From the sequence record OM982646: 64,000 nt of DNA; one strand, written 5' to 3'. The position numbers and the translations under genes were made by a program. This document shows, piece by piece, positions 21,570-24,190 of the stretch. The DNA is from Escherichia phage ST4. Position 1 is the stretch's first letter. Every line of letters starts with the position of its first letter. The notes under the pieces were generated by a model. That model was given only the letters and a program-made list of their open reading frames with translations. It had not been told where the DNA came from and searched no databases.

Positions 21570-22787
21570 TTAACTTAATGCATAGTCTGTTTCAAGAATG
21601 TCCTGCCATAGGCTGTCATCCAGCTTACCAGCAGAGAACTCTTGTCCCAGTATCTGAGACAGGATAAAGCCCAGTAAGTCACTCTTAGCAATGTCAGACA
21701 GAATCTGATTGTACTGACGACGCAAGTCATTACCATAGTTAGGATGGCAACGGAAGCAGTCATGTACAGTCATTACAGGGAATGGTTTCTTAGGCATGGT
21801 ATTGAGCATAGCCATGATTACATCTGTATCAACCAATGCAATTGTTTCTGAGTCCAGATAATCAAAGATACGGGTAGACAGGAAGCCTGACTTCTCATAG
21901 CTAGTCCACAGTGTGTTAACCATTTCATAGTTATCATCAGAACCAACCATGTAATCATTAGTACCCTCACAGAGGGACTTAACATAGTTCACCTGGTTCA
22001 TGTCGAAGTTACAACGACGCAGCATCTCACGTACCACCATTCCATCAATAGAGTGAGTGATGTTAGCAGAGAGCATACGAGTCTTCTCTTCAGTACCCTG
22101 AACCATACGAGTGATGTCGAATGGTTTACCTAAGAAGTTAACAGTCTGTACTTCTGGAACCATGACCTTAATGACAGCATGGAAGTTGTCAGGCAGTACC
22201 CATACGTAACGGTTAGCATCCGGGTTACCACATTGCAGTAAGAACTTGTTCAATGCCCAAGGACCACTTGCAACTGTTTCCATTACATTCTCAAAAGTCT
22301 TGAGACGGATACCTTCTCCGAATACTTCTTTAGGCTTGGCTTCTGAACCGTAGAACGCAGTCATAACTGCTTGCTTGGTGTCACTACGTTTAATACGAGA
22401 TGCTTCACCAAGGATGTCCAGCATTTTGTGATAGATGACTGTATAAGCATCTCGACGTAATGGCTTACCATTCTCACCCATGTAGTTAACTACATTACAC
22501 AGTTCAGCAGCAGAACGGTCACCAGTCAGACAAGCCAGTAACTGTAAGCCAGATGATGTAGCATCCAGAGCTACGGCATAACCAATAGGCTTACCAGCTT
22601 TCATATCTTTCCATGCGTTTACACCGGCATAGAACAGTGCAGAATCTTCTGCTTCATCTACCAGATTTAGTAGGTTAGCTTCGTTCTCATCGAACCAGCT
22701 AATACGTTCATCCCATGTCTTCTTGTCCAGACCGTAAGAATTGGCAATATCAATTTTTAAATATTCTTTAGCTGTGAAAATCTGCAT
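21570..22787 (-). CDS. phage RNA polymerase II catalytic subunit (T7-like single-subunit RNAP palm/fingers; N4 gp16-like)
   Basis: Motif A VALDATSSGLQ, motif B RSDTKQAVMTAFYGS (R-x3-K-x7-YG), motif C TVHDCF. Confidence 0.7.
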   Translation of the reverse strand: MQIFTAKEYLKIDIANSYGLDKKTWDERISWFDENEANLLNLVDEAEDSALFYAGVNAWKDMKAGKPIGYAVALDATSSGLQLLACLTGDRSAAELCNVVNYMGENGKPLRRDAYTVIYHKMLDILGEASRIKRSDTKQAVMTAFYGSEAKPKEVFGEGIRLKTFENVMETVASGPWALNKFLLQCGNPDANRYVWVLPDNFHAVIKVMVPEVQTVNFLGKPFDITRMVQGTEEKTRMLSANITHSIDGMVVREMLRRCNFDMNQVNYVKSLCEGTNDYMVGSDDNYEMVNTLWTSYEKSGFLSTRIFDYLDSETIALVDTDVIMAMLNTMPKKPFPVMTVHDCFRCHPNYGNDLRRQYNQILSDIAKSDLLGFILSQILGQEFSAGKLDDSLWQDILETDYALS

Positions 22788-22788
22788 C

Positions 22789-23370
22789 TTAGGCTCCTAG
22801 TTTCCACTTATAGCCATATGCTTGCGCATACGTACCATTAATTACTTGATTAATATTAGAGGGTATGCCATTAACACTTCGTGCAGCAGCACTAAGTGAA
22901 TGGAATGTCTTAATGTATTCGCCATCTAGTGAGTACTGCTCAACAGGCTTAGCTGATTTAGTATTGATGCCATTGATTGCATCAGAGTAGTACCTCTTTA
23001 CGTTGGTATTAGCTGTAACAATACGAATGTTATCCAGGGAATAACCTTTGTAATCATCCAGTCTGTCCAAGCTAGGTTTCAAGGCAGTTGGATAATCTTC
23101 CAATACCCACTTGTCATACAATGTGTGAAATTCTTTGCTTGAGTATACCCATTTCTCTAGCTCCTCCTTAGTGAAGGATACGGGAGTAAATCCCTTCTTC
23201 TTGGTTCTACTAATAGAACTGGAGTACATTTGATTAATGACCCCATGTTTTGAACGGATAAAGCGTTTAAGGCAGTCTTTACAGTCTGCCCTAACACCCT
23301 GTTTGCCAGTGGACTGTTTATTGAACATGTCCAGAGGCAAGTTCTTCTTACATACTGAACATGTCTTCAT
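22789..23370 (-). CDS. HNH homing endonuclease
   Basis: N-terminal CSVCKK..CKDC zinc finger, DRLDDYKGYSLDNIRIV HNH-like core; one-nucleotide gaps to both flanking RNAP II genes. Confidence 0.6.
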   Translation of the reverse strand: MKTCSVCKKNLPLDMFNKQSTGKQGVRADCKDCLKRFIRSKHGVINQMYSSSISRTKKKGFTPVSFTKEELEKWVYSSKEFHTLYDKWVLEDYPTALKPSLDRLDDYKGYSLDNIRIVTANTNVKRYYSDAINGINTKSAKPVEQYSLDGEYIKTFHSLSAAARSVNGIPSNINQVINGTYAQAYGYKWKLGA

Positions 23371-23371
23371 A

Positions 23372-24190
23372 CTAATCCTCGTTTACTAGTTCTTTGTCTG
23401 CAAATTCAATAACAGCTTTGTTATAGGAAGTGCCTTGGTAGGATATATGGTATCCGGAACAGTAAGTACGCCCTCTCTTATCGTAACGGTGAGCCAGGGA
23501 GAAGTTATTACCTTCCTTAGTCACTAATTCCATTACTTCTTTAGCTGTACGGCTGTACTTCTCAAAGGCTTTGACTCGTTTCTCATAGTCCTGACGAGTT
23601 TCCCCTTCTTTGGGTTTATCCATGTTAGGACGAGAGTCTTTTACATAGTTGGCAACGTCCCAGTTAATACATAGACGTTGGTTATTCATACGGTTGATAT
23701 GGTCAAGGCAGACATCCATCTCATGATGGTTCTTCTTGAGGATGATACTTCCCTTGCTCTCGTAGTAACCAGTATCTCTGTTAGTTCTGACAGGATTGGG
23801 AGAACTTACGATAGGCAATGGATACTGGAATGCTTCCAGTTCCATCTGGACATCTTCACTAATCTCATAGATAACACCGAACTTGTCGATGGTAGGGTCA
23901 TAGTTGAAGCAGTCATTCTCTGCCATCTTATACAGACAGTCAGCGATGTACTGAGCATCATCTGAGTGACTCATGAGAGAGCCAATCATAGTCTGGATGT
24001 CGGCACGTTTATGTAGGGCAATCTGCACCATTGCATCAATGAGCAGCTTATAATCAATTTCTAAATAGGCAGCGAATGCCTTAAAGTCAATTTCTTCGGA
24101 GTCCTCGAATTCCTTCCTCATGCGAGGTAGTAATTGATTTTTATTGAATAGTTTTTCGAGTTGCTTCTGATGTTCAATAGATGAGTACAT
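23372..24190 (-). CDS. phage RNA polymerase II small subunit (N-terminal part of T7-like RNAP; N4 gp15-like)
   Basis: YDKRGRTY matches the T/DxxGR motif of T7-like RNAPs; gene lies just upstream of the catalytic-subunit gene. Confidence 0.55.
   Translation of the reverse strand: MYSSIEHQKQLEKLFNKNQLLPRMRKEFEDSEEIDFKAFAAYLEIDYKLLIDAMVQIALHKRADIQTMIGSLMSHSDDAQYIADCLYKMAENDCFNYDPTIDKFGVIYEISEDVQMELEAFQYPLPIVSSPNPVRTNRDTGYYESKGSIILKKNHHEMDVCLDHINRMNNQRLCINWDVANYVKDSRPNMDKPKEGETRQDYEKRVKAFEKYSRTAKEVMELVTKEGNNFSLAHRYDKRGRTYCSGYHISYQGTSYNKAVIEFADKELVNED

Follow-up and report, generated by a model that had tools for sequence, protein, structure and literature searches.

The whole 64-kb stretch of DNA analyzed here (the window) belongs to a G7C-like, N4-related coliphage of the genus Gamaleyavirus, and it carries on its minus strand the two genes of an N4-type RNA polymerase II (RNAP II) with a third gene packed between them. 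The explanation that fits the locus best, and that we consider quite probable, is that a selfish, free-standing homing endonuclease, active or recently active, resides between the RNAP II genes of a G7C-type phage. By the ORF listing, the three reading frames run 24190..23372 (272 aa), 23370..22789 (193 aa), and 22787..21570 (405 aa), with intergenic gaps of one nucleotide each (23371 and 22788), as an earlier reading of this DNA, made from the sequence only, had described. The three-gene block is already annotated in phages G7C, PGN829.1, Bas96, and Moonfish, and is also found on a 74-kb Logan contig; likewise, the 584-nt junction, 1-nt gaps included, is shared by four deposited phages and a Logan contig. 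Since this junction recurs, and since both outer proteins can be aligned over their whole length with the crystallized subunits of N4 RNAP II, the arrangement is far beyond chance. Directly 3' of gp16, an intrinsic-terminator-like hairpin followed by a T-run (21538..21563, minus strand; 11-bp stem, TTTATTTTTT tail) ends the gp15-endonuclease-gp16 transcription block, and the annotation of PhAPEC7 has a terminator in the corresponding position after gp16.

A split RNAP II is a textbook feature of N4. [quoted passage not shown] Judged by homology, the outer ORFs of the window encode the two subunits of this middle-gene RNA polymerase. The small subunit, the orthologue of N4 gp15 or RNAP1 (23372..24190, minus strand), aligned over its full length with chain A of PDB 6DT7 (residues 3-269 against 2-268, E 7e-118) and matched phrog_2166, 'N4-like RNA polymerase' (E 2e-116). 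The large subunit, the orthologue of N4 gp16 or RNAP2 (21570..22787, minus strand), aligned over its full length with chain B (residues 1-405 against 1-404, E 2e-193) and matched phrog_2051 (E 4e-178) and Pfam PF00940 (RNA_pol, E 8e-15). On the T7-like profile phrog_414, the two proteins occupy consecutive, non-overlapping segments (227-425 for the gp15-like ORF, 428-596 for the gp16-like ORF). All four polymerase motifs lie on the minus strand where the sequence-only reading had put them: T/DxxGR as YDKRGRTY (23462..23485; aa 236-243 of the 272-aa ORF, aligned to PDKRGRTY of N4), and, within the 405-aa ORF, motif A as DATSSGLQ (22542-22565; aa 75-82), motif B as RSDTKQAVMTAFYG (22347-22388; aa 134-147), and motif C as VHDC (21756-21767; aa 341-344). 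Each is conserved against N4 in the 6DT7 alignments, and the published assignment likewise gives DX2GR to gp15 and the other motifs to gp16 (PMC4496689). The alignments with N4 gp15 and gp16, phrog_414, and PF00940 bear out the claim of a split N4-type RNAP II whose two ORFs map to the N- and C-terminal parts of T7-like RNAPs. The enzyme predicted here from its genes is therefore orthologous to the N4 heterodimer, and the flanking gene order is also that of N4 (gp14 upstream, the 32-kDa decoration protein downstream). Unlike the window, N4 has a spacer of its own between the two RNAP genes, which is 47 nt long, non-coding, and without an endonuclease.

The 193-aa ORF (22789..23370, minus strand) is the orthologue of G7C gene 15.1 and matched phrog_1035 (E 4e-30). 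It has its own start, stop, and ribosome-binding site (RBS), and stands as a separate gene between two complete genes. An intron or intein had no support, as all three ORFs are complete and separate, and an Rfam scan at gathering thresholds was empty across the 64-kb window. From the N-terminus, the protein consists of a Cys4 zinc ribbon (23272..23361, minus strand; C4, C7, C30, C33) that is found in most homologues and gives weak zinc-ribbon Pfam matches in the family, a predicted beta-beta-alpha-metal core PSLDRLDDYKGYSLDNIRIVTANTN (23002..23076, minus strand; D102, R103, Y110, N114, N123), and a NUMOD1 or I-HmuI-like helix-turn-helix DNA-binding module (22849..22950, minus strand; aa 141-174). 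Across 17 homologues, P99, S100, D102, R103, D106, Y107, Y110, N114, and N123 are invariant. In every one of them, Arg103 thus stands where an HNH nuclease has its general-base His, and the only His residues of the 193-aa protein (H42, H82, and H157) are all outside the nuclease core. No Pfam HNH family, HNH_3 included, matched any of the 17 members at E <= 1; the Pfam matches were to NUMOD1 or I-HmuI_NUMOD-like families, and to His_Me_b4a2 in three members only.

The spacing of the core residues, D102-R103-(6)-Y110-(12)-N123, is identical to that of PacI, D92-R93-(6)-Y100-(12)-N113, and hhalign to PacI gave E 2.8e-4 at a probability of 41%. Searched by itself against PDB chains, the 193-aa ORF had no significant match, and the profile of 17 sequences reached marginal values (E 0.36 for I-HmuI and 0.58 for PacI by hmmsearch). 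A single-sequence AlphaFold model was dropped (pLDDT 34); an AF2 model built from the alignment of the 17 homologues (pLDDT 92.5) was used instead. As the sequence statistics against PDB are not significant, the nuclease assignment is based on predicted fold and motif spacing. By this model, the protein is a member of the His-Me finger superfamily, with a beta-hairpin and helix and the predicted metal-ligand Asp and Asn. Its core is PacI-like, with D-R in strand 1, Arg in place of the general-base His that ends this strand, the metal-ligand Asn on the helix, and an omega-loop Tyr that would either activate the nucleophile or act as the nucleophile itself. Given the absent His, activity would hinge on a PacI-type mechanism, and it is from the predicted fold and weak sequence statistics that we infer such activity; the Tyr-for-His chemistry of PacI is documented (PMC5714182, PMC4081073). 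The earlier label 'HNH' accordingly holds in a loose sense only, given the invariant Arg and the missing Pfam match. Canonical HNH and 'endonuclease VII' are both unsuitable names, and the ORF should rather be described as a PacI-like variant of the Arg/Tyr type that ends in a NUMOD1 tail. All copies are intact (582 nt), with a dN/dS of 0.05-0.13 that argues for a functional protein; a domesticated function would account equally well for such strong purifying selection.

The three genes are tightly packed. The Shine-Dalgarno sequence (SD) of the endonuclease gene, GAGGA, lies 5 nt upstream of it (23376-23380) within the last codons of gp15, where the synonymous codons GAG GAT create it. That of gp16, AGGAG as read from the sequence (22794..22798, minus strand), falls within the final codons of the endonuclease ORF and stands in place of the AAGGAA leader seen in cassette-free genomes. 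The 1-nt gaps therefore reflect gene packing, each downstream SD being embedded in the end of the upstream ORF. Since the own leader of gp16 was replaced in the G7C-type cassette, the gp16 RBS is now inside the endonuclease ORF.

The presence of the ORF in related genomes is sporadic: it was found in 6 of 62 matching records (four phages). Cassette-free relatives have either other fillers or a spacer of 206-207 nt comprising a 53-aa ORF, a conserved hairpin (9-bp stem and 3-nt loop), and the gp16 RBS leader. The complete 207-nt spacer is present in 22 records; in another 12, the match is confined to its final ~60 nt. Relatives have no fewer than five other fillers or alleles at the gp15/gp16 junction, 13 junctions having been inspected base by base. 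In HK2 and pSb-1, the filler is a paralogous endonuclease (32-33% identical), and in UE-M6 and UE-S5a, it is an unrelated, canonical HNH_3+AP2 endonuclease. Among the distant homologues, the closest (39-49% identity) are those of the schitoviruses pVco-5, L020, and L069, which likewise sit between RNAP1 and RNAP2. The gamaleyavirus gp15/gp16 junction is, hence, a multi-allelic hotspot for two unrelated endonuclease families. What did not hold was the notion of a very precise insertion into an intergenic junction: the whole spacer was replaced, the junction of relatives is not empty, and the edges of the exchanged segment are ~50 nt inside the RNAP genes.

These edges were evident from junction alignments. 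The last ~50 nt of gp15 (23372..23421, minus strand) form a haplotype linked to the cassette, with an identity of 89-95% to Bas96, PGN829.1, and G7C, 78% to Moonfish and contig L099, and 68-78% to genomes with other fillers. The first ~54 nt of gp16 (22734..22787, minus strand) are linked as well (MQIF...I...S versus MQLL...V...N elsewhere); here, the linkage is perfect in four carriers versus eight non-carriers, and Moonfish is a recombinant. On each side, the association between flank and cassette spans ~50 nt and then ends. Such co-varying flanks are the pattern that homing predicts and could have arisen in this way, but the same would result if a linked block were exchanged by ordinary homologous recombination. 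The divergence of the cassette is discordant with that of the backbone: compared with contig L099, the 193-aa ORF is 98% and gp15 90% identical. The dS is 0.17-1.0 for the 193-aa ORF versus 0.26-0.30 for gp16. The gp15 of the window also carries its own divergent 63-nt patch, and an exact-sequence look-up of this gene matched no public contig.

In the scenario that we favor, the endonuclease ORF would be co-transcribed with the early RNAP genes and translated from the SD in the last gp15 codons. During mixed infections, the enzyme would cut the cassette-free allele of related phages at a putative target site near the gp15/gp16 junction, and recombinational repair off the carrier genome would then copy in the ORF with ~50 nt of each flanking gene. 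The copied flanks carry substitutions that presumably protect the carrier.

A rival account takes the cassette for a vertically inherited passenger, that is, an old insertion which was kept in one sub-lineage, was lost or replaced elsewhere by recombination, and is not homing now. Every copy is at exactly the same site and of the same length, and the Gamaleyavirus genomes are mosaic elsewhere too (for example, a patch at nt 757-1008 of gp16), so linked flanks need no nuclease. Nevertheless, the ORF has stayed intact over a long time (dS up to 1.0 with the low dN/dS given above), its identity does not track that of the backbone, and two unrelated endonuclease families are found at the junction hotspot, as repeated nuclease-driven invasion predicts. 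We therefore regard a mere passenger as decidedly unlikely. Still less probable, in our judgment, is a domesticated DNA-binding protein that has a nuclease-like fold but no longer cuts, and that might serve RNAP II as an accessory or specificity factor or regulate early genes. The missing catalytic His, the position inside the RNAP operon with tight coupling to both subunit genes, a dN/dS as low as that of gp16, and two DNA-binding modules (Zn ribbon and NUMOD1) would all suit such a role, and some His-Me fingers, for example SMAD MH1, are indeed non-catalytic DNA binders (PMC5714182). However, most sister phages are without the ORF and have unrelated fillers in its place, among them a bona fide HNH_3 endonuclease, so RNAP II must be able to work without it. 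Moreover, the PacI metal and catalysis residues D, Y, and N are invariant among homologues that lie in 74/80 unrelated phage contexts.

A further proposal, that the 193-aa ORF itself originally split a single-chain T7-like RNAP into gp15 and gp16, builds on the idea, published in 2017, that a homing endonuclease divided the ancestral RNAP (PMC5418858). Endonuclease ORFs do split gp16 again, at motif C in Moonfish and at motif B in pVco-5, and one also splits the DNA polymerase gene of the window. Yet all N4-like phages have the split, whereas only four deposited gamaleyaviruses have this ORF; N4 itself has an empty 47-nt spacer; and the cassette lies over an older, conserved gp16 leader that it has replaced. 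These three observations make the cassette a secondary colonizer of an existing junction. As the split predates the ORF, we rejected it as the cause in this lineage, and the proposal is hardly credible here.

The ORF in the DNA polymerase gene (insert at 2927-3769) is a sister PacI-like ORF, located between the two halves of the gene and with the same stop/start packing. A 39-aa duplication around this insert, suggested by tblastn, turned out to be a spurious HSP extension upon nucleotide and residue check, and a permissive Rfam scan of the insert returned chance miRNA and lncRNA matches only. This DNA polymerase, split by a related ORF, is relevant to the published proposal that split polymerases arise through homing endonucleases. 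One might go beyond the homing endonuclease reading and suppose that the translation of the essential gp16 depends on keeping the endonuclease gene, a translational capture or addiction, and that, with the sister ORF in mind, the His-less Tyr-type family actively makes 'polymerases in pieces'. This extension is speculative and rather unlikely. If true, the captured leader and the split DNA polymerase would be a living model for the origin of the N4 RNAP II split.

An endonuclease between the RNAP genes is already known: it entered GenBank with the G7C genome and has been discussed in print from 2017 at the latest. The closest known system is the 15/15.1/16 block of vB_EcoP_G7C (HQ259105), with an 819-nt gp15, 1 nt, a 582-nt ORF, 1 nt, and a 1218-nt gp16. 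Its gene 15.1, annotated as 'putative HNH homing endonuclease', shows allelic differences only (95% protein and 90% DNA identity to the 193-aa ORF); on the other hand, G7C has neither the second endonuclease in the DNA polymerase gene nor the 63-nt gp15 patch of the window. Amgarten et al., 2017 described this 'G7C-type' RNAP layout, with a homing endonuclease between RNAP1 and RNAP2 (PMC5418858). As many sequenced, culturable carriers (such as G7C and Bas96) and non-carriers (such as PhAPEC7 and Bp4) are at hand, the junction lends itself well to studies of homing and co-conversion in podoviruses.

Among characterized enzymes, PacI (PDB 3LDY and 3M7K; group 20 of the His-Me finger classification) shares the Cys4 zinc site and the D-R...Y...N spacing. 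However, PacI is a restriction enzyme that works as a homodimer, has two Cys4 sites, and lacks a NUMOD1 tail, whereas the 193-aa protein has four Cys in all, sufficient for one Cys4 site, with no counterpart of PacI C109 and C112, and combines its single ribbon with a C-terminal helix-turn-helix, as in monomeric homing enzymes. Free-standing PacI-like HNH endonucleases of variable presence, identified by profile comparison, have also been reported from lactococcal Skunavirus phages (PMC12724721); these fall in the same named category and are likened here by description, and they belong to another phage family and insertion site. I-HmuI and the phage HNH_3 or NUMOD homing endonucleases resemble the 193-aa protein in having a nuclease core followed by a NUMOD-type helix-turn-helix, and D102, R103, and N123 align with I-HmuI D74, H75, and N96. 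I-HmuI, however, is encoded within an intron and possesses the catalytic His, whereas this ORF is free-standing, has Arg in that position, and does not match Pfam HNH_3. The seg and mob genes of T4 are free-standing homing endonuclease genes (HEGs) located between or inside essential phage genes. Work from the Edgell and Belfort laboratories reportedly found that insertion of mobE splits nrdA in Aeromonas phage Aeh1. These HEGs share with the G7C-type ORF an intergenic location by conserved genes, a sporadic distribution, and a functional 'gene in pieces', and their co-conversion of flanking markers has a possible parallel in its co-varying flanks; by contrast, the G7C-type ORF, a putative HEG known from sequence, occupies a split that is older than itself.

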